From Candidatus Levybacteria bacterium RIFCSPHIGHO2_02_FULL_40_18 (GTDB taxonomy: Bacteria > Patescibacteriota > Microgenomatia > Levybacterales > GWA1-39-11), in NCBI GenBank assembly GCA_001782235.1, contig MFOC01000007.1, forward strand, positions 13,094-77,093: DNA of 64,000 nt, read 5' to 3'. Of this stretch, positions 9,997 to 61,843 are shown piece after piece (position 1 is the first letter of the stretch; every line of letters begins with the position of its first letter). Under the pieces are notes generated by a model, which had not been told where the DNA came from, did no database searches, and saw only the letters and a list, made by a program, of their open reading frames with translations. A program made the position numbers and the translations under genes.

Positions 9997-10922
9997 AGGA
10001 GTTTCATCTGATTCTGCTTTTTGGTCTCTTCTTTTTTTACAAATACCTCGTCCACTCTTTTTGGTAAAGTCTTAAATTCAAATTCTTCGAGTGCATTTTT
10101 AAAGGCGCCGATATCAATTTTTTGCGTCTTGCAGTCTTTTAAATTACAAACGAATGGAACATCTGTCACAATTGCGGCAAGTTTTTTTCCTAAAGTTGCC
10201 GCTTCTGCCCCATCAATTAATTTTTGAGCTAAAGCCTTATTTTTCACGGCAATATCATCGAGGTGTTTATAAATATTGTCGACAGTTCCGTAGTCGGCAA
10301 TTAAATTCGAAGCAGTTTTTGGACCAACTCCCGGTACTCCCGGATAATTATCGGACGGATCACCGGTCAGCGCTTTTAAATCTACGAATTGTGAAGGATC
10401 AACGCTATATTTTTCTTTTACGTCGGCATTATCCAAAAGTTTTACTTCTGAAATACCTTTAACAGGCATTAGCACAAAAGTATCTTGATCAACCAATTGA
10501 AGCATATCTCGGTCCCCAGTTACTATATAGGTAAAAATCCCTTGTTTATTAGCGGCTTCGGACAGCGTACCGATTACATCATCCGCCTCATATCCGTCCA
10601 CTCCTACTTCCTGAATTTTTGCCTTATGTAAAATGTCAATAATTGCCTCGTATTGGGAGGATAAATCCGATTCCATTTTTGGGCGCTGGGCTTGATAGCC
10701 TACATAAAGTTGTTTCCGAAAAGTAGGTTTTGCCCTGTCAAAGGCAACCACAATATATGCGGGTTTTAATTGCTGGATAAGTTTTAGAAACATTGCAAAA
10801 AATCCGTGAATTGCGCCTGTCGGAATACCCTTAGATGTTGTAAATGGGGGCATTGCGTGATAGGCGCGGTGGACAATTGCCGGCCCATCCACAAGCAAAA
10901 AAACATTGCGCTTTTTTTCCAT
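9993..10922 (-). CDS. 5'-3' exonuclease (stand-alone Pol I N-terminal domain-like / FEN)
   Basis: VFLLVDGPAIVHRAYHA…VVAFDRAKPTFRKQLYVGYQAQR and a helix-hairpin-helix region (LTGDPSDNYPGVPGVGPKTA). Start taken at the MEKKRNVF Met rather than the upstream extension at 10958. Confidence 0.8.
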   Translation of the reverse strand: MEKKRNVFLLVDGPAIVHRAYHAMPPFTTSKGIPTGAIHGFFAMFLKLIQQLKPAYIVVAFDRAKPTFRKQLYVGYQAQRPKMESDLSSQYEAIIDILHKAKIQEVGVDGYEADDVIGTLSEAANKQGIFTYIVTGDRDMLQLVDQDTFVLMPVKGISEVKLLDNADVKEKYSVDPSQFVDLKALTGDPSDNYPGVPGVGPKTASNLIADYGTVDNIYKHLDDIAVKNKALAQKLIDGAEAATLGKKLAAIVTDVPFVCNLKDCKTQKIDIGAFKNALEEFEFKTLPKRVDEVFVKKEETKKQNQMKLL

Positions 10923-11040
10923 GCGAACATTATAGCAAGAAAAATAAGAAAAGCGCATTGATAATTGATTATTTATTATTGATTATTGAGATTATATTGG
11001 ATTATTGGAAATTGGTAGTATTGGTAATATTTGAAATTCC

Positions 11041-12565
11041 CAGGAGGGAGAACTGAGGGTGCGGGGTAGATGTGTGTTCGTCATGAAGACGAGAATGTTG
11101 CTTGCGCAACCACACAGCTACCGCCGCACCTTTCCCGATTGAATCGGGACTCAGTCTGCGAAGACCTTCAAGCTTACGCAATCAGGCCTTTTCGCCTTGT
11201 TCAGGACGAACCTGAAGCGTTAACGAGGGCGCAAAGAGCCGCCGTCACGTGTTCAGGAAATTCGTCCCAGACGAAACCCCTAAGGGTCACTTCGTCCGTT
11301 AGCGACGTGCGAACTTTAGGGTCGCGACGCCGGCGAGGGCGAGGGCGAAGGCGAAGGCTATGGCACCAGCGATGCCAAACAGGACCGAGCTGTTGCCAGC
11401 GTCGGCCAGGCCAGCGTCACCGGCGAAAGCCGTGGACGTGTTCAGCGACAGCACCGAGATTGCTATCACGCTGATAAACGCCACAATCGCCAAAACCGGC
11501 CTGCTGAACGTAATCACCGACCTTCCGATGAAGGCGCTCATGCCGATGCCATGGAGTACTCTTCTCATGGTGTTGAGTCGTAGCAGTCGCAGTCGTCGCG
11601 ATGACGATGTCGGGTCGTGAGCTACGATGTAGAGTACGCCGATGGCGGCCAGTACGAGCAGGCTTGTTGCCAGGATGACGGCGGTGGTCGTTTCAGAGTC
11701 CATCAGGGCGACGACGGTGTTGCCGCCTGTTTTGACCACTGCCTGGTCGTACACGTCGCCTACTGCGATCGGGACCGCTTCTAGCGTGTCCGGGACCGAG
11801 TCAGTCGCCGCGTACATCGTTGTCGTGGCCGGTGGGTCGTGTCCGAGCTTCAGTCCGAAGAGACCGAAAGCTCCGAACGCTACGAGGAGAGCGGCGATAA
11901 GGCCGATCACCCCAAGCTTTCTGTCTTTCACGGCGGTTCCTCCTGTTGTCCTTCTTTGGAAGGATCTTGCCGGGTTTCTCTCTTGGCTTCGTCTCTGCCC
12001 CAGGGCACGTAGGTCCCCGATGGTTTCCCTAACGCGAGGTCTCTCCTTTTGTGCTCTGGCGGTCCCGTTACCCCCTCCTTTACCTTGAAAGGATGATTAT
12101 TGGAAGGCCCAAGATGCGGACGGCGGGGATCCCGCGCGGGGGTGTCCGTATCATTCGGCCGTAACTTTTGATGGAGACGCAGATTTCGCCCAGCCCCAGA
12201 CACTGCATTCCCGTGACAGAAGCAACGTACTCGAACTGCTCGTGCGTCTCCACCTCTCAAGACCAGCTTTTATTCGATAAACTTCTCCTTTCCAGACTAT
12301 CGTGCTTACCGATAAAATATGGTAATCTCCTGTGCCTTGCCGTCCTCGGCCGAGAATCGCAGCTACGAACAAGGCTCCAAGAGAATTATTGGCCATGGGG
12401 GGGCATACTGCTTTGTCGCATTTCGCGGGCGAGGAGATTTGCAACTTCGGCAGAAGTGTCCCCATGGGGAGGCCCACTGAGTTCGCAGCCGGAGGTGGGG
12501 CCTCCAAAAGGCGGAGCGAAAACTCCTTAGCGTGATGTAGCGGGCGGAAAGACTACGATAGCACG
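11041..12565. other. GC-rich island 1 (~55-60% GC, ~1.5 kb) lying in an intergenic position
   Basis: Abrupt composition shift relative to flanking ~40% GC sequence. Contains one plausible membrane-protein ORF with an AGGAGG SD and ~630 bp with no convincing ORF. Confidence 0.7.
11299..11931 (-). CDS. Hypothetical integral membrane protein encoded within GC-rich island 1
   Basis: GTG start preceded by AGGAGG at a 7-nt spacing. Several predicted TM helices (LIAALLVAFGAFGLFGL…, ILATSLLVLAAIGVLYIVA…, AIVAFISVIAISVL…). Confidence 0.4.
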   Translation of the reverse strand: MKDRKLGVIGLIAALLVAFGAFGLFGLKLGHDPPATTTMYAATDSVPDTLEAVPIAVGDVYDQAVVKTGGNTVVALMDSETTTAVILATSLLVLAAIGVLYIVAHDPTSSSRRLRLLRLNTMRRVLHGIGMSAFIGRSVITFSRPVLAIVAFISVIAISVLSLNTSTAFAGDAGLADAGNSSVLFGIAGAIAFAFALALAGVATLKFARR

Positions 12566-12633
12566 CGAGGAGTGTAAAGGCTTTTATTTTCTTCTTTCGA
12601 ATTGATATTCGACTGTGAACCCTATGTAGTAAC

Positions 12634-12676
12634 CGACAATTGACATTTGACAACTGACAATTGACAATTGACAAAT
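12634..12676. promoter_or_regulatory. Tandem TTGACAA-type direct repeats (iteron/operator-like)
   Basis: gacaattgacatttgacaactgacaattgacaattgacaa, immediately outside GC island 1. Confidence 0.3.
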
Positions 12677-12954
12677 TGTTGCACAGGATTCACAGCCGAA
12701 CTATATGCACCATGCTTTTAGGTGCATGCTACCAATTCCAAAAGAAGTTTACCCCGTTAGAAAATTTATTTTCTAATCGGGCTTCGCAGACTGAATTTTC
12801 AAAGAGCAAAGCATTTGTCTAAATAAATAACGCGCATGCAAAAAGCGCTTATTATTAGGACAATGCTAATATTTGAAGTATATACCCGAATAAAACGCGT
12901 TTCAAGTGGAATTTCGATGTATCTTCCTAATCCCTAGTATCTAGTCACTATTTG

Positions 12955-34407: not shown

Positions 34408-34728
34408 TTTATAAAATCAGCTTCAAAGTGGCTCAGAAAACTCGGGTCTTCACCTTTTAAATGGCTCCACAAACTCTACAAATCTCTTTTTAATGGCTCT
34501 AAAAACTCCAATTGACCAAGAATGCTATAATCAAGCTATAATTTGATTGCCTAAACTCACAGTAATGTGGGCATGGCACAAAAACCTTCGCAGAATTAAG
34601 CTCGTCGTCAGAGCATCTGCGAAGGTTGTCGCCCGAAAGGACGGCAGGTGGGGCAACCCATCGTTGGCGGCGAGCTTTGCTATTGTTCGCCTCCAACAAA
34701 ACCTAAACTGTCGAGGGAGGTGAAAAAT

Positions 34729-35172
34729 ATGGGTAAATTAAAATTAGCAGGAATTATTTTTGTAGCATTTATTATCGGCGTATTCGTTGGTATTTCAGGA
34801 AACGGTAGGAGTTCTACTACAAATAGTCAGGAGATAAAACAATCTACAAGCACCAATAGTCCTGCCCCATCAGAAGAAGCAAAAGATACGGGTAAAGTTG
34901 AGGTCAAAAGCCAATCGAAAAAGATATCATCAATTGGATATATGGAAATAGTCGGTGAAGTAGTAAACAATACAGATAGACCTGTGTCATCTATCAAAAT
35001 AACAGCAACCTACTATGATGAGGAAGGTAAAGTCATAGGGACGAGCTTCTCTTATGCAGGGGACACATCAGATACGCCGCTTGCGGTTGGAGCGACAGCT
35101 CCATTTGAGGTAAGCAGCTATCCGGATAAAATAGATACTGACAACTATAAACTTGATGTTAATTGGAATTGA
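34729..35172 (+). CDS. Hypothetical secreted/membrane-anchored protein
   Basis: MGKLKLAGIIFVAFIIGVFVGISG signal-anchor, then a Ser/Thr-rich linker and a beta-rich domain. Start taken at the Met with a GGGAGGTG SD. Confidence 0.4.
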   Translation: MGKLKLAGIIFVAFIIGVFVGISGNGRSSTTNSQEIKQSTSTNSPAPSEEAKDTGKVEVKSQSKKISSIGYMEIVGEVVNNTDRPVSSIKITATYYDEEGKVIGTSFSYAGDTSDTPLAVGATAPFEVSSYPDKIDTDNYKLDVNWN

Positions 35173-53986: not shown

Positions 53987-54049
53987 GGCTCGAAATAGTT
54001 GAATAGCTAAATGGTTCTAAACCATGCAACCATGTAGCTATTTTAACCA

Positions 54050-54181
54050 TTAAACTCTTTTTCTGCCCCTCAGTCTTCTCCTCTTGATTACCTGTTTTCC
54101 TGTCCGGTTCTTTATTCGATGGCGAAACCCATGCTTCCTCGCATGTCTCAACTTTTTAGTTTTCCTAACTTTTTCCGGCAT
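54050..54181 (-). CDS. rpmH: 50S ribosomal protein L34
   Basis: Hand-translated: MPEKVRKTKKLRHARKHGFRHRIKNRTGKQVIKRRRLRGRKRV, a typical L34. Missing from the ORF track because it is under 60 aa. Confidence 0.8.
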   Translation of the reverse strand: MPEKVRKTKKLRHARKHGFRHRIKNRTGKQVIKRRRLRGRKRV

Positions 54182-54266
54182 AAGAAGTAATAATACCAAA
54201 AACAAACCTTCGAAACAATAGAACTGTTTTGCTTTTTAAAACCTTTTAAAGTAAAATCAGGGACAA

Positions 54267-54869
54267 ATGAGTCTGGCAGAAAGACTTAACGAACGAGTTC
54301 CCAATAATGAAGACGTTATCCTGCTTAGAAGGACAAGAATTAACTATGACGCTGATAAAACATCCGCATTGGCAACCGCTAAAAGACGCCTTATCGATTC
54401 GGGATCTTTTGATATTGTTGAAGAACTCTTAGAACTTGTTGAGGGTTCATGGGTTAACTTTAGTGAGGATAATCCACCTTCCGGCTTGCCCGTCTTAGGT
54501 AATCGTTCCCCATTTTTGGGTTTGGGACTTTATCGGGGACGGGATAGTACAATTACATATAACAAGTGGGTTAAGATTGAGTTTGGTTGGATTAATAAAA
54601 TAAGAGATGAAGAGGAAGATATTTCTGTTTCGGGGGAAGGATCAAAAAGCTTTTTAGCTATAACGGCACCGGAAACTTCTGACCAAATTATTATAGGAGC
54701 CAGTTCATATGATCTGGCTTTTCTTTCTGACCCAATCCGCTTCAAATATACTCTGTCAAGAGAACAATATTTAAACAGAGAACTTTTTGAAAACGTGATT
54801 GTGGAAGCTTCAGTTTTAGCAGGTTTAACAAAACCAAACTTAAAGTTGAAGGGAGCCAGAAATGAGTGA
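54267..54869 (+). CDS. Hypothetical protein A1 (paralog of 55587-56150)
   Basis: MSLAERLNERVPNNEDVILLRRTRINYD… aligns with A2 at the N-terminus (MSL.ERL..R.P.NE..ILLRRTR) and the C-terminus (LFE..IVEA..LAGLT). The two share a near-identical 5' leader. Confidence 0.45.
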   Translation: MSLAERLNERVPNNEDVILLRRTRINYDADKTSALATAKRRLIDSGSFDIVEELLELVEGSWVNFSEDNPPSGLPVLGNRSPFLGLGLYRGRDSTITYNKWVKIEFGWINKIRDEEEDISVSGEGSKSFLAITAPETSDQIIIGASSYDLAFLSDPIRFKYTLSREQYLNRELFENVIVEASVLAGLTKPNLKLKGARNE

Positions 54870-55485
54870 TTTTGAGAGAGAGCTAAAAAGAGCGAAAGTT
54901 GAGGCAGAAAGGGCCAGATTGCAAGAGGAAGCAAGAAAAAATAGAGAGGCTGATGAGCAAGATAGAACTTACAGGCAGAGAGTAAGGCAACTTGAGCAGT
55001 TAAGAGAACAAGAGGTAGATAGATATTTGGCCCCGTTTAAGAGCACGGTTGATAGATTGCTGAAAGATCTGGGTAACGCCACTTGGGGTGCGGGCAAATA
55101 CGGTTTCATCTTTAGAAAAGGGGTTCGTGTGGGGGGTTCCGGTTCTGGGCCAGAAGTTGAAAACAAAAATCACATCGCGACTTGGATTATTGGGAGACAG
55201 GAATATTTTAGTAGCATCGGTAGCCTTTTCGGTAGTGGGCATGTTTGGCGTCCTATAACTAATAAAGGCAAGTACGGCGAGGAACCCACTGGCTGTAGTG
55301 AGTATTTCTATGTTAATTTAGGTATGGAGAGTCCGCAAGGCACTTTCCACTTTGAGGGGTTAGACGGAATTACTACTGGCTCCTCAGAATCTGAACTTAA
55401 AGAAATGCTAAAAAGAGCTTATCTAGAGGGGCCTAAAAAAACATATCCTCATGTAACATATGACGCACATGGCCTTGGAGGCTAG
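54862..55485 (+). CDS. Hypothetical protein B1 (N-terminal Arg/Glu-rich coiled coil + Gly-rich globular domain)
   Basis: Overlaps A1 by 8 nt. TWGAGKY, VRVGGSGSGPEV. Confidence 0.45.
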   Translation: MSDFERELKRAKVEAERARLQEEARKNREADEQDRTYRQRVRQLEQLREQEVDRYLAPFKSTVDRLLKDLGNATWGAGKYGFIFRKGVRVGGSGSGPEVENKNHIATWIIGRQEYFSSIGSLFGSGHVWRPITNKGKYGEEPTGCSEYFYVNLGMESPQGTFHFEGLDGITTGSSESELKEMLKRAYLEGPKKTYPHVTYDAHGLGG

Positions 55486-55586
55486 TTTTTATAGAATAGC
55501 CTCAAAAGGCTAGGCCTTGGCGAGCTTACGAGACTAGAATTGTTCGTTTTGCTTTTTAAAACCTTTTGGAGTAAAATCTGACCAAA

Positions 55587-56150
55587 ATGAGCTTAAAAGA
55601 GAGGCTTGAGGCAAGGGCTCCAAAAAACGAATCTACTATATTACTCCGGAGAACCAGGCTAGAATTTGAGCAGGATAGAAATAGTCATTTGGCTCCAGTT
55701 AGAAAAAGGCTGTTAACATCGGGGGTGTTCGAAGTATTAGAAGAACTCTTGGAAACGGTTGAAGATTCTCGATTTAGCGTCAGTCCAAACTATCAGGAGT
55801 TCCCTCCCCAGCATATTCCTGCCACCGCTGCGACAGCCCTTATATGTTCTTGGGCAGTCTTTAAGACTTTTGAACATATCGACGGCGAACCTGATTTGAA
55901 ACAAACCTCAAGACGGTCTGTAAAAATTACTGCCTTCTTAAATTCGGACAATATCGAAGTTGCATCAAGAGAAGACACCGTTTTATTTTTTGAAAATAGG
56001 CGAGACCCCTTGCTACCGTCAGGCAAAGAGGTTTTCAGAAAAACCTTATCCCCTAAAGAATGGCAGAATGGGGATTTGTTTGAAACTACAATTGTTGAGG
56101 CTTTAACCTTAGCTGGGCTAACAAGATCTCAGCTAAATTTGGGAAATTAA
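55587..56150 (+). CDS. Hypothetical protein A2 (paralog of 54267-54869)
   Basis: See A1; the upstream leader at 55540-55586 is near-identical to 54220-54266. Confidence 0.45.
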   Translation: MSLKERLEARAPKNESTILLRRTRLEFEQDRNSHLAPVRKRLLTSGVFEVLEELLETVEDSRFSVSPNYQEFPPQHIPATAATALICSWAVFKTFEHIDGEPDLKQTSRRSVKITAFLNSDNIEVASREDTVLFFENRRDPLLPSGKEVFRKTLSPKEWQNGDLFETTIVEALTLAGLTRSQLNLGN

Positions 56151-56953
56151 AGAAGTTTAGGGATCAAGGAACTTCGATAGTCCTCACCGACAATTTTGCC
56201 AAGGTCTTTTCTAATCCATTCCTCGCCTTTTCTTTGAAGGTCTTGTGGGAGAGTGGAAGTTTGAGTTGATTTAGTGCACATACCAACTAAGAGATTTTCA
56301 ATTGCTTCTTTGGTTGCTCCTAAAAAATCAAACCCATCTGGATATGTTTTGGGAGAGCCGTAATTTACGGGTTTAGGATTGTTCGGATAAATAGTTCGGC
56401 TGAAACTTGAGGTGCGGCCATCCCCATATTCAATCAAAACGTCGGAATTACAGTAAACAATGAAGGGGAATTCACGGCCTGAATTGTCTGGAACTATGGA
56501 GATTCCCAAGGTAATAAATTTCTTTCCTTCAGTGCGTACTAATTTATACTTTTTCACGCCATTGCCAGAAGTGTATCTTAAGTCTACTCCTATAAAGGGG
56601 GGTGAGCTTTCAGTGTGTGAGAATTCTTTTTTTAAGGTTGGATATTTAAAGCTAAGTTCGTATTCAGCATTTAAAATTACCGATCCCGGATCTTGGGGAT
56701 CAGCGATAATTCTTGGATCTGTTATTTGTCCTGCTTTCCAGACATCGCGCCTTATTCCTTCCAGCATTTCCCTTATGCCAAGAGTTTGGAGAATAGCAAT
56801 TGCTTCGGGGGTTTTTCTTTTGATCTCTTCGGCCCTTCTCGTAGCGTCTTCTCGAGCTTTTCTTTGTCTTGCCTCTTCTTCTCTTTGAGGTTTTAGAAGC
56901 TCATCTCTAATTCTTTCTTGCCAGTTCACGGTGGAGAGATGATAACAAATCAT
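56147..56953 (-). CDS. Hypothetical protein B2 (distant paralog of B1; convergent with A2 and overlaps it by 4 nt)
   Basis: N-terminal REEEARQRKAREDATRRAEEIKRK coiled coil and VWKAGQI (compare TWGAGKY in B1). Confidence 0.4.
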   Translation of the reverse strand: MICYHLSTVNWQERIRDELLKPQREEEARQRKAREDATRRAEEIKRKTPEAIAILQTLGIREMLEGIRRDVWKAGQITDPRIIADPQDPGSVILNAEYELSFKYPTLKKEFSHTESSPPFIGVDLRYTSGNGVKKYKLVRTEGKKFITLGISIVPDNSGREFPFIVYCNSDVLIEYGDGRTSSFSRTIYPNNPKPVNYGSPKTYPDGFDFLGATKEAIENLLVGMCTKSTQTSTLPQDLQRKGEEWIRKDLGKIVGEDYRSSLIPKLL

Positions 56954-57010
56954 GGGTCTTAAGTCAAAAATGTCTTTGTGAGGGTTTAGCGGGAGGAGCG
57001 GTGGAAACTT

Positions 57011-57044
57011 ACTTAATACTTGATACTTAATACTTAATACTTTA
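57011..57044. repeat. ACTTAATACTTGATACTTAATACTTAATACT tandem repeat just upstream of gap
   Basis: acttaatacttgatacttaatacttaatacttta. Confidence 0.7.
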
Positions 57045-57054
57045 TTCTAATTAC

Positions 57055-58137
57055 ATGGTACGGGTTGCAATCAATGGTTATGGAAGAATTGGTAGAGTGG
57101 CGCATCGAGTGATTCTTCTTTCGCACACGGATGAAATCGATGTTGTTGCCATAAATGCTGGATCCTCAACTGATATAACCGGTTGGATGTATCTTTTAAA
57201 ATACGATACTGTTTATGGCGCCCTGCAAAATACTAATCTTTCGGTCAAAAAAGCAGAGGAAGTAAAACTACCATTCGAATCTCAAGCGTTGCCAATAGGC
57301 GCGCTTATTATTAATTCGAAAGAAATTCCTGTCTTCTCTGAAAAGGAGCCTGAAAAACTTCCGTGGCGGGACTTAAATGTTGATGTTGTAATTGAATCGA
57401 CTGGCCACTTTACAACCAACGAGGGTTTGCAAAAACATATTACTGCAGGATCAAAGGCAGCAATTTTATCTGCGCCATATAAAGATGAAGCTTCAGGTAG
57501 CACTTATGTTTTAGGGGTAAACCTTCCACAAGATGGATCTATTCGAACCGAGAATATTGTGAGCAATGCCTCTTGTACTACAAATTGTATTACTCCGATT
57601 GCACATGTAATAGAGCAAGCTTTTGGAATAGAAAAAGCCATGATGACAACAATTCATGGATATACATCGGATCAAAGAATTCAGGACGGAGGACACAAAG
57701 ATTATAGACGCGCAAGAGCTGCGGCAGAAAACATTATCCCAACATCAACAGGCGCGACAAAAGCTGCTGCAAAAGCTATCCCAACGCTCGAAGGAAAATT
57801 TAACGGGCTGGCGATTCGCGTTCCGGTGCCAACAGGATCTTTATCGGACTTTACTTTTTTGGTAAAGCGAAATACAACCGTTGAAGAAGTTAATCAAGCA
57901 CTTGAACAAGCATCCAAAGAGCCGCAATTCGAAGGAATACTGCAGGTGACCCACGATCCAATAGTCTCATCAGATATAATCGGAAATTACCATTCGGCAA
58001 TCGCAGATCTTTCCCTCACGCAAGTTGTCGGCGGGAACATGGTAAAAGTGATTGCCTGGTATGATAACGAATTCGGCTACTCAAATAGATTGGTAGAAGA
58101 AGCAATTATTCTAGGCAAGCAAGTCCTTCCAACATAA
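57055..58137 (+). CDS. gap: Type I glyceraldehyde-3-phosphate dehydrogenase
   Basis: MVRVAINGYGRIGR and the SNASCTTNC active site. Confidence 0.9.
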   Translation: MVRVAINGYGRIGRVAHRVILLSHTDEIDVVAINAGSSTDITGWMYLLKYDTVYGALQNTNLSVKKAEEVKLPFESQALPIGALIINSKEIPVFSEKEPEKLPWRDLNVDVVIESTGHFTTNEGLQKHITAGSKAAILSAPYKDEASGSTYVLGVNLPQDGSIRTENIVSNASCTTNCITPIAHVIEQAFGIEKAMMTTIHGYTSDQRIQDGGHKDYRRARAAAENIIPTSTGATKAAAKAIPTLEGKFNGLAIRVPVPTGSLSDFTFLVKRNTTVEEVNQALEQASKEPQFEGILQVTHDPIVSSDIIGNYHSAIADLSLTQVVGGNMVKVIAWYDNEFGYSNRLVEEAIILGKQVLPT

Positions 58138-60421: not shown

Positions 60422-60769
60422 TACCTTTTTATACTATTTTTCAGGCAAAGAAAAAAGCCCGGACCGAAAAGTAGTAAGTTGATGAAATGCGTGTGAACGC
60501 ATAAACAGCATGCTAGACGCTGTTGATTCATCAACCGTTCCTAATCGGTCGGGGCTTCTCCTGCACTCTTTGAGTGTCATTCAATTGTTCGCGTACTTAG
60601 CACGACGGGGGTGGGGATGGCCATCTCTTCTCAAGGAAGTGGGCGAGAATTCCGCAAGGAATGCTTGTCACTCCTAGAGCAAAGTAGCCAACCATCACTG
60701 CGTAGAGAATCGAGTCCATTTCGTGCTCCTTTCATGAACGGCGAATCCCGATTTTTCGGAAACCCCAGG

Positions 60770-61192
60770 CTAGGACGAGCTGAGTACTCTCAGCACATCG
60801 TCGAATCGCTCATTCAAGACGAGATCAGCGGGCGTTCTCCCTTCGAGTTGGTGGTTCCTGGTTCGAAGCCATTCACACGCCTTGTCCATGTCTGGAAAGG
60901 CTTGTCGTAGCCTCCTCATAAGGGTTGTACCTGAGGCGAGGTGGCTCGCTTCGATTTTCGAGTAAATCAAGGCGCAGGGGATTTTCTCCCATTCGACCTC
61001 AACCTCATATTCAGGACCTCGTTGCTCTCGGCGATGAATCGCGAGGGCTGCACGTACCCATTCCGAGAACGGAATGCCGCGTTGTCGCGCTTTATCCGCC
61101 TCTTCACGGGCCTTTGCTCGATCCCAACCAAGCTCAACAACCATGTCGTAGACTTCATCTTCTGCCCGAGTGGGTTCATGCATTTGTTCCAC
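60770..61192 (-). CDS. DUF2384-like (Xre/MbcA/ParS-type) antitoxin-domain protein; no cognate RES toxin nearby
   Basis: C-terminal ACEWLRTRNHQLEGRTPADLVLNERFDDVLRVL resembles the toxin-binding domain of MbcA/ParS-type antitoxins. Confidence 0.45.
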   Translation of the reverse strand: MEQMHEPTRAEDEVYDMVVELGWDRAKAREEADKARQRGIPFSEWVRAALAIHRREQRGPEYEVEVEWEKIPCALIYSKIEASHLASGTTLMRRLRQAFPDMDKACEWLRTRNHQLEGRTPADLVLNERFDDVLRVLSSS

Positions 61193-61259
61193 GTCTTTTC
61201 TCCTTGTCTCGCCAAAGGCGGACTGAACGGCGATCCTTCGATGAACTCAGGACCCCGGG

Positions 61260-61451
61260 CTAGATGATGAGGCTTGCTGCGCCAATCAGGATAAGCAATA
61301 CCCCTATTGCCCCTGCAAAACCTAGGAAAACTATCTTGATCGAAACCTCGGTCGCAACGTCGGCCCTTCTTCTAGGCACACCCCAGACATTGAGCCAAGC
61401 AAAGATGATCGCTGCGGCTATGAGGAAGCCTCCGATCTTAATCAGTTCCAT
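61260..61451 (-). CDS. Small hydrophobic membrane protein
   Basis: GGAGGAGAAATG start context; two TM helices. Confidence 0.35.
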   Translation of the reverse strand: MELIKIGGFLIAAAIIFAWLNVWGVPRRRADVATEVSIKIVFLGFAGAIGVLLILIGAASLII

Positions 61452-61485
61452 TTCTCCTCCTTGAGAGAATTAATTTCTTACCATC

Positions 61486-61537
61486 AATATGTGGCATTCC
61501 GAATACCAACTACTTGCTATCCAGAGCGCCACATATT
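61486..61537. promoter_or_regulatory. 10-bp perfect inverted repeat (AATATGTGGC…GCCACATATT) upstream of the island-2 operon; putative operator
   Basis: Read directly; lies ~35 bp upstream of the small membrane-protein start on the minus strand. Confidence 0.4.
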
Positions 61538-61843
61538 ATGGTTTTCCACAAACCCCGAATAATCTTAACCGTTCGCCTTTTCAGTTCTGTTCGAACACGG
61601 CTCACGGAGCGATTTTACGGGGCAGGCAGCTGAATATGTCAAAGTGCTGCGCCTCTTCGGCGCACCCGCCGGCGAGGCGGGAAGAAAATGATTCGAGGCA
61701 AAATTCAAGCCGCTTCAACAACAGCAAAGCTTGCTGGATTAGCTCGGAATTTGCCCCAAAATACGCCTCCGATTATATACTAGAGAAAACAGTTAATCAA
61801 ATCTTATAGGATCTCCTATCTACTGGTATCTAGTTGCTATTCG

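Follow-up and report, generated by a model that had tools for sequence, protein, structure and literature searches.

A rare accessory two-gene module of new protein families in a Candidatus Levybacteria genome

Introduction

Small accessory gene pairs that encode a binding protein and its partner are a familiar kind of object, with type II toxin-antitoxin (TA) and toxin-immunity pairs, such as TriTu of the Rhs toxin TreTu (PDB 7zhm_D), among the closest described systems. In this study, we explore a cluster of four genes, A1, B1, A2, and B2, in a 64-kb window (the whole stretch of DNA that was analysed) from a groundwater metagenome-assembled genome (MAG) of Candidatus Levybacteria (Candidate Phyla Radiation (CPR), Microgenomates). 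The A and B protein families are new to all libraries searched. We tentatively read the A-B pair as an accessory cytoplasmic binder-partner module of a selfish or conflict type, either toxin-antitoxin-like or defence-like, and give this reading somewhat less than an even chance. CPR bacteria are rich in lineage-specific hypothetical proteins, very few of which come with an experimental or structural handle. Defined islet boundaries, an isogenic-like empty site, fold predictions for A1 and B1, an A-then-B pairing with a swappable B, and a fusion of A to a J domain therefore make this locus a directly testable case. If the module proves to be TA-like or defence-like, it would represent a new family of such systems where few are known.

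Several features of the locus recall type II TA and toxin-immunity pairs: an autonomous bicistron that has a promoter to itself and in which stop and start overlap, a first gene product that is acidic and a second that is more basic, and a patchy accessory spread with tandem multiplicity and partner swapping. Unlike type II TA systems, A and B match no toxin-antitoxin or defence family in sequence, B has no known toxin fold, and A has no recognised DNA-binding domain. A1, A2, and B2 found no significant match in Pfam, NCBIfam, PADLOC, or PHROGs, a PDB-sequence search returned nothing significant, and neither A nor B falls into a type II TA family in the four profile libraries. These searches bear out the initial annotation of the locus, made from the sequence alone, which had recognised no known domains. 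Two candidate matches were rejected, namely B1 to PADLOC PDC-M68B (E 2.6e-4), which is confined to the charged helix and was judged compositional, and A1 to Ntox22, which is noise (E 0.27, 11.7 bits against a cut-off of 25). Furthermore, the hallmarks of polymorphic toxins are missing, with no Ntox or nuclease family and no secretion-associated domain found, and with B variable throughout.

Distribution and organization of the A-B module

The first pair comprises A1 (54,267-54,869, plus strand; 200 aa, pI 5.0), a member of a new family, and its B1-type partner B1 (54,862-55,485, plus strand; 207 aa), which shares 8 nt with the end of A1 and is preceded by an SD-like (Shine-Dalgarno-like) GGGAG. 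The second comprises the A1 paralog A2 (55,587-56,150, plus strand; 187 aa, pI 5.7) and the B2-type partner B2 (56,147-56,929, minus strand; 260 aa), which are convergent and overlap by 4 nt at their stop codons. The open reading frames (ORFs) of all four genes were confirmed, as were both overlaps described in the initial annotation; the proteins are exact matches to the NCBI 'hypothetical proteins' OGH15881-OGH15884, with equivalents of all four in three other MAGs of the same species. B2 more likely starts at GTG 56,929 than at ATG 56,953, the start of the longest ORF (268 aa), because the -10 hexamer of its predicted promoter falls inside the ATG-extended ORF, because the alignment of a homolog (L009_B, see below) begins at that residue, and because one independent public 260-aa gene call uses the same start. 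The NCBI annotation of B2 thus appears 8 codons too long.

A1 and A2 align end to end with 35-38% identity (E 1e-30), sharing a conserved N-terminus (MSLxERLxxRxPxNE..ILLRRTR) and C-terminus (LFE..IVEA..LAGLT) around a variable middle region with many indels. Their proposed paralogy with conserved termini is hence well founded. No homology is detectable between B1 and B2, by BLASTP (E = 2) or by hhalign between the two families (2.7% probability), and what they have in common is architecture only: an N-terminal helix or stretch of about 50% charged residues, followed by a globular domain. The initial picture of a duplicated two-gene cassette therefore holds for A, which was duplicated and diversified, and fails for B, whose two representatives belong to unrelated families; the likeness described between the B partners, a coiled-coil N-terminus plus a C-terminal domain, stands as a common architecture and not as kinship.

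The A family is extremely rare. A profile of A1 and A2 searched against 1.84 billion representative proteins gave 10 matches: the queries themselves, six genuine relatives (P0005-P0009 and P0011; E 4e-33 to 1e-9), all of them Levybacteria-type, and two spurious matches (P0010 and P0012), rejected as eukaryotic-type repeat proteins that score only by repeat summation. Word-index homology searches with A1, B1, and B2 returned the query proteins alone, and a contig scan with the A1+A2 alignment found no relatives. A four-sequence A alignment matched one GTDB species representative only, from the same genome as contig L009, and nothing in JGI metagenomes. Given this rarity and the absence of the module from the same locus in collinear relatives (see below), A is an accessory family rather than a universal single-copy core gene, so that a conflict-type accessory reading stays open.

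On the contigs of the A relatives (L005-L012 and L094), the layout recurs without exception: A is followed by a B gene for a protein of 200-285 aa, as found in L005, L007, L008 (twice), L009-L012, and L094. Wherever B follows A, the two overlap by 1-8 nt or lie no more than 18 nt apart, a spacing that fits translational coupling. Compact two-gene operons with a predicted promoter of their own are thus seen in A1/B1 (8-nt overlap), L009 (4 nt), and L008 (8 and 4 nt in its two pairs); the exception is B2 of the window, which is inverted and has its own predicted promoter.

The partner genes fall into at least three mutually unrelated sequence types. B1-type proteins start with MS[DE]FEREL, are 25-38% identical to B1, and occur in L007, L008 (twice), and L094, whereas B2-type proteins start with M[NS]W[QE]ER and occur in L009-L012; a third type, unrelated to both, is found in L005. 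Comparison of A, B1, B2, and the L005 type by hhalign gave probabilities below 3% throughout, and the B types differ over their whole length, not at the C-terminus alone. L009_B, which is 34% identical to B2 over its full length, lies downstream of its A gene and is co-directional with it, and the convergent layout of B2 is therefore a local inversion with a promoter of its own.

Diversified copies also occur in tandem. For example, L008 carries an A-B pair followed by a divergent A'-B pair, L007 an A' followed by A-B, and L094 a truncated 83-aa A remnant followed by an A-like J-domain fusion and a B1-type gene. Moreover, the module occupies at least four genomic contexts, lying after Bac_transf and glycosyltransferase genes and before DUF4012-recO in L006, L009, and L010, after pgk in L007, beside a CAP-domain gene in L094, and between gap and rpmH in the window. 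Beside the double array of L008 (93-1,025, minus strand), the 310-aa product of a separate gene combines an HEVKH (HExxH-type) motif with a twin-arginine-like signal (RLTRRDVIKGTAAIALQA); it is possibly a secreted metalloprotease, and no Pfam match is on record for it.

In none of the proteins is there a hydrophobic stretch that could serve as a signal peptide or membrane helix (Kyte-Doolittle maximum over 19-residue windows at most 1.54), and the A and B proteins are therefore soluble and cytoplasmic. The A proteins are acidic (pI 5.0-5.7), and the B proteins range from pI 6.1 to 9.1.

An islet between gap and rpmH

The four genes lie on an islet of about 2.8 kb (approximately 54,202-57,039), defined as extra DNA relative to the two loci L014 and L019 by tblastn synteny and by junction alignment to L014. 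These two loci hold the closest YidC relatives (83% and 67% identical, respectively) in a scan of 80 metagenomic loci, 0 of which encodes a relative of A, B1, or B2. Both are collinear with the window over at least 8 genes on each side, one side carrying the block penicillin-binding protein (PBP)-pgk-yraN-cmk-gap and the other rpmH-rnpA-yidC-jag-wzy-PBP with a further three genes. Homology to L014 extends from rpmH up to about 54,201 and resumes at about 57,040, just before the gap ATG. As gap adjoins rpmH in L014 and L019, at a distance of about 80-120 bp, the 2.8-kb block is an indel. The initial annotation had instead placed the cluster where dnaA and oriC would normally lie, which does not hold: the relatives have gap beside rpmH, no dnaA was found among the large ORFs scanned, and the cumulative GC skew has no inflection at 54-57 kb, DnaA boxes not having been searched for explicitly.

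By parsimony, the islet is a gain in the lineage of the window. A search of its ends for direct or inverted repeats, target-site duplications, and terminal inverted repeats found none. A1 and A2 (38% identity) resemble each other no more than they resemble A homologs of other genomes (31-48%), whereas the host genes on either side share 81-87% identity with their L014 orthologs. Divergence of the two modules therefore long predates their arrival at this site. The module may move between Levybacteria genomes as pre-diverged tandem copies.

Predicted leaderless promoters

Upstream of both A genes lies a 33-mer, GTTTTGCTTTTTAAAACCTTTTRRAGTAAAATC, of which the 64 kb hold exactly two copies, 31/33 identical (consensus GTTTTGCTTTTTAAAACCTTTT[AA/GG]AGTAAAATC), where shuffled sequences lead one to expect 0 matches. 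Copy 1 (54,226-54,258, plus strand) contains a -35 hexamer TTGCTT (54,229-54,234), a 17-nt spacer, and a -10 hexamer TAAAAT (54,252-54,257), followed by 9 nt to the ATG of A1. Copy 2 (55,546-55,578, plus strand) has its -35 at 55,549-55,554 and its -10 at 55,572-55,577, again with 9 nt to the ATG of A2. The conserved 33-mer is thus a predicted sigma70-type promoter for a leaderless or near-leaderless mRNA. Further upstream, the A1 and A2 sequences are unrelated (0-3/10 identical per block), and in the last 10 positions before the ATG, 5/10 are identical. As the -10 ends 9 nt before the ATG, essentially none of the 33-mer would be transcribed and no leader is left; the 9 nt that follow are poorly conserved, and no Rfam family matches the element. 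The near-identical upstream element of the initial annotation is therefore genuine, whereas its interpretation as a shared regulatory 5' leader gives way to that of a promoter.

In most other genomes recovered, the A homolog has the same arrangement upstream, with TTGnnn, a spacer of 17 nt, a -10 of the TAnAAT or TATACT type, and 8-12 nt to the start; upstream of A in L005, only the -10 box and its distance are clear. B2 has a predicted promoter on the minus strand (56,939-56,967; TTGACT-17-(TG)TATCAT), with 9 nt from the -10 to the GTG. The islet in the window hence comprises three predicted transcription units (A1-B1, A2 alone, and B2 alone), each probably driven by its own sigma70-like promoter 8-12 nt from the start codon. 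A terminator-like hairpin with a T-run at the end of B1 (55,470-55,484, plus strand) is a weak consensus match only.

This layout is not peculiar to the islet. A TANN[AT]T hexamer whose end lies 5-12 nt ahead of the start is present at 28/62 crude gene calls in the window, against 8-10 at control offsets, and an SD-like 4-mer lies upstream at only 7/62, suggesting that leaderless transcription units are the norm of this genome. Leaderless promoters as the default gene-start layout would matter for the annotation of start codons and promoters in CPR MAGs; our look at the literature on leaderless translation in CPR turned up nothing of direct use.

The degree of promoter identity stands out against the genes that follow, in which the same codon is used for identical A1 and A2 residues in 11/34 cases at the N-terminus and 8/19 at the C-terminus. 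Identity of 31/33 that includes the spacer would point either to constraint on more than the hexamers, for example through a shared operator, or to homogenisation by conversion; it is compatible with an operator and proves nothing. The A promoters may accordingly share an operator for autoregulation, or have undergone local gene conversion. The two modules of L008 have a similar within-genome likeness of the segment from the -10 to the ATG, as read from the sequences rather than from a statistical test.

The flanking gap gene has a predicted promoter as well (TTGATA-17-TATTCT, 6 nt before the ATG), overlapped by a 7-nt tandem repeat. This repeat in the B2/gap intergenic region (57,010-57,042; TACTTAA x 4.7, 92% matches) is lacking at that position in L014 and L019.

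Predicted folds and a J-domain fusion

An AlphaFold2 model of A1, built on a 7-sequence alignment (mean predicted local distance difference test (pLDDT) 75.7, predicted template modelling score (pTM) 0.72), has four N-terminal helices (residues 3-57), five antiparallel strands, and a C-terminal helix (165-184). The conserved helices of both termini are packed against the sheet, and the loops of the sheet are hypervariable. The low-confidence segments of the model (73-97 and 114-123) are the hypervariable, indel-rich part of the family. The B1 model (pLDDT 76.6, pTM 0.65) has a charged helix of about 73 residues, then a sheet and a C-terminal helix. The two models suggest that A and B1 share a helix-sheet-helix fold and possibly ancestry, and both proteins begin with M-[SG]-x-x-E-[RK]-[LIF]; as hhalign of A against B1 lends no support, the shared fold is a prediction of the models.

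Fold neighbours of the models have 4-15% sequence identity and come from diverse systems. Class I chaperones of type III secretion systems (T3SS), including AvrPphF ORF1/ShcF (1s28), ExsC (3kxy), ShcA (4g6t), and SycN (1xkp), resemble A in being acidic alpha/beta sandwiches encoded beside a presumed partner gene. They differ in that A has an alpha-beta5-alpha order with an extra four-helix N-terminal region, is about 50 residues longer, has no T3SS context, and shares only 8-13% identity with them. Frataxin/CyaY (4jpd_A, 4hs5_A, 7n9i_A) and the frataxin-like Nqo15 (2fug_7) have their helix 1 where A carries the conserved acidic helix [DE]I.EELLE.V.GS, but identity is 6-15%, A is accessory rather than core, is paired with B, and has no link to Fe-S cluster genes, and the Frataxin_Cyay profile (PF01491) does not match A. 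YbjN-like or T3SS-chaperone-like proteins (Tll0839, 2plg_B; DR_1245, 4h5b_B) differ in the arrangement of the N-terminal helices, and B adds its 73-residue helix; the YbjN profile (PF10722) gave no match. Finally, the Med17 C-terminal domain (4h62_Q), RWD/UEV-type Ctf19 (6qld_P), and Spc24 (8ppr_F) likewise combine a helix or coiled coil with an alpha/beta sandwich in paired paralogous subunits, but they belong to large eukaryotic complexes, making this an analogy of fold and architecture only.

A functional lead comes from L094 (1,720-2,577), where one gene, lying just before a B1-type gene, encodes an A-like domain joined with a coiled coil and, at the C-terminus, a J domain. The A-like domain matches the A profile with E 1e-12, including both the N-terminal and C-terminal helices. 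The J domain scores E 5.7e-6 against Pfam DnaJ (26.8 bits against a cut-off of 27.8), and the HPD of its KAHPDKGG aligns with the HPD of human DNAJB12. Since J domains recruit Hsp70 to whatever the remainder of the protein binds, the fusion suggests a role for the A domain in binding a partner or client, in agreement with the chaperones, adaptors, and immunity-like proteins among its fold neighbours. It is no evidence that A belongs to the J-domain family, the J domain (PF00226) being absent from all four window proteins.

Weighing the explanations

Rarity, varied contexts, tandem diversification, partner swapping, and a compact coupled organisation are what lead us to prefer the conflict-type reading. 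In such a module, A would bind the neighbouring B as a dedicated partner-binding protein, be it a chaperone, an adaptor, or an antitoxin-like factor, and the variable loops or face of the A sheet may set its specificity for B. The initial annotation had suggested a polymorphic, possibly conflict- or surface-related system; with the module accessory, rare, and not core, the conflict-type part stays open, and the surface-related part falls with the lack of hydrophobic segments.

Several observations weigh against a conflict-type module. Neither A nor B has a detectable toxin, nuclease, NTPase, or DNA-binding domain, and the globular domain of B1 resembles A and no toxin fold that is known. With about 200 aa each, the two proteins are on the large side for members of a classical type II pair. 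The N-terminal helix of B is of mixed charge and not uniformly basic (pI of the first 60 residues 5.9 to 9.5), so acid-base pairing of A and B is no robust argument. The near-identity of the two A promoters may reflect plain gene conversion without any regulator. Moreover, the islet contains no mobility genes (integrase, transposase), tRNA, or GC anomaly, its GC content being the genome average; in consequence, parsimony is what decides between gain here and loss in the relatives.

A more specific version of the conflict-type reading, which we consider unlikely as a whole, would be a CPR-specific conflict or addiction module made of two diverged copies of one frataxin/T3S-chaperone-like sandwich fold. 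In it, A would be a binder that determines specificity and would restrain its cognate B or hand it to Hsp70, B would act via its charged helix rather than an enzymatic toxin domain, and the module would have spread as pre-diverged tandem arrays with leaderless promoters.

The most serious competitor, doubtful in our estimate but well within consideration, is a lineage-specific cytoplasmic complex without a role in conflict, in which A and B would be structurally related subunits of a heteromeric scaffold or adaptor (e.g., in DnaK/DnaJ proteostasis or in envelope or division-site organisation), dispensable and patchily kept. The J-domain fusion in L094 fits such a complex, as do the envelope-polysaccharide neighbours at three loci (GT2, GT4, NTP_transferase, Bac_transf, DUF4012), the proximity of Wzy_C, PBP, and YidC in the window, and the lack of a toxin-like domain. 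However, a family so rare, missing from collinear close relatives and found in four or more genomic contexts, is hard to reconcile with a fixed cellular role, for which tandem arrays of deeply diverged copies and swapped B types would be unusual, and each module has its own promoter instead of being embedded in the operons of its neighbours. Should the scaffold explanation be correct, the pair would be a structural heterodimer that has recently been mobile, of which examples are rare.

It is improbable that the pair is a chaperone and its effector, with A acting as an analogue of T3SS class I chaperones that keeps B unfolded or targeted by way of its N-terminal region, and B exported non-classically onto the host of a presumed episymbiont. 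The recurring start motifs of the B1-type and B2-type proteins would suit an export signal, and the variable B domains fit diversifying selection. Against this, no secretion apparatus is known or seen nearby, A is larger (about 190 aa) than class I chaperones, and its order of elements is the frataxin-like alpha-beta5-alpha rather than the alpha-beta3-alpha-beta2-alpha of CesT/SycE. Moreover, A shares the N-terminal motif (MSLxERL), which is therefore unlikely to be a B-specific export signal.

The explanation closest to the initial annotation, a duplicated A-B cassette forming a surface-related polymorphic system under a conserved 5' leader RNA, accounts for the duplication and variable middle region of A and for an upstream element conserved far beyond chance, but is very improbable given the absence of signal peptides and membrane helices, the unrelated sequences of B1 and B2, and the position of the element on -35 and -10 hexamers that are 17 nt apart and end 9 nt short of the ATG, without an Rfam match. 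Equally remote is the idea that the islet is left over from a phage, a plasmid, or some other mobile element, with cargo of no use to the cell, to which the islet-like presence and absence, the orphan proteins, and a second small islet nearby (60,422-61,843) with an Xre/MbcA-type antitoxin gene might point: no relatives were found in IMG/VR viral contigs, GenBank phages, or PLSDB plasmids, BFVD structures gave no match at E <= 0.001 and query-normalised TM scores (template modelling) below 0.4, integrase, transposase, and terminal repeats are absent at an average GC content, and the ORFs are intact and keep 25-48% identity across genomes, implying purifying selection.

Flanking genes and further features of the window

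Outside the islet, the left flank is the divergent rpmH (L34; 54,050-54,181, minus strand), followed leftward by rnpA, yidC, jag, a Wzy_C ligase gene, and a class A PBP gene, and the right flank is gap (GAPDH; 57,055-58,137, plus strand), followed rightward by a cytidylate-kinase-like gene, yraN, and pgk. The rpmH gene is missing from public gene calls of the same contigs (window 54,050-54,205; loci L001-L004), and no exact record of its 43-aa L34 product was found on look-up; its longest ORF, which begins with TTG and encodes 51 aa, probably exceeds the true gene by 8 codons. Between rpmH and rnpA (54,002-54,042, transcribed from the minus strand), a near-perfect hairpin with 15-nt arms (93% complementary) and an 11-nt loop is a possible processing or attenuation site.

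The second islet, 1.4 kb between pgk and PBP, is likewise absent from L014 and L019, where some 40-60 bp separate PBP from pgk. This islet holds an Xre/MbcA/ParS-type antitoxin gene (60,770-61,192, minus strand; PF09722, E 3e-8), next to which no RES or MbcT toxin ORF is recognisable, and has a raised local GC content (0.465). Elsewhere, the region 10,001-12,700 reaches a GC content of 0.48, compared with a window average of about 0.41, and holds many ORFs of 100-210 aa that overlap on both strands, with no Rfam or tRNA match. A full-length LOOT RNA (Rfam RF03000; 34,548-34,662, plus strand) scores 87 bits against a gathering score of 46.4, and adjoins and slightly overlaps the downstream ORF at 34,648-35,172.

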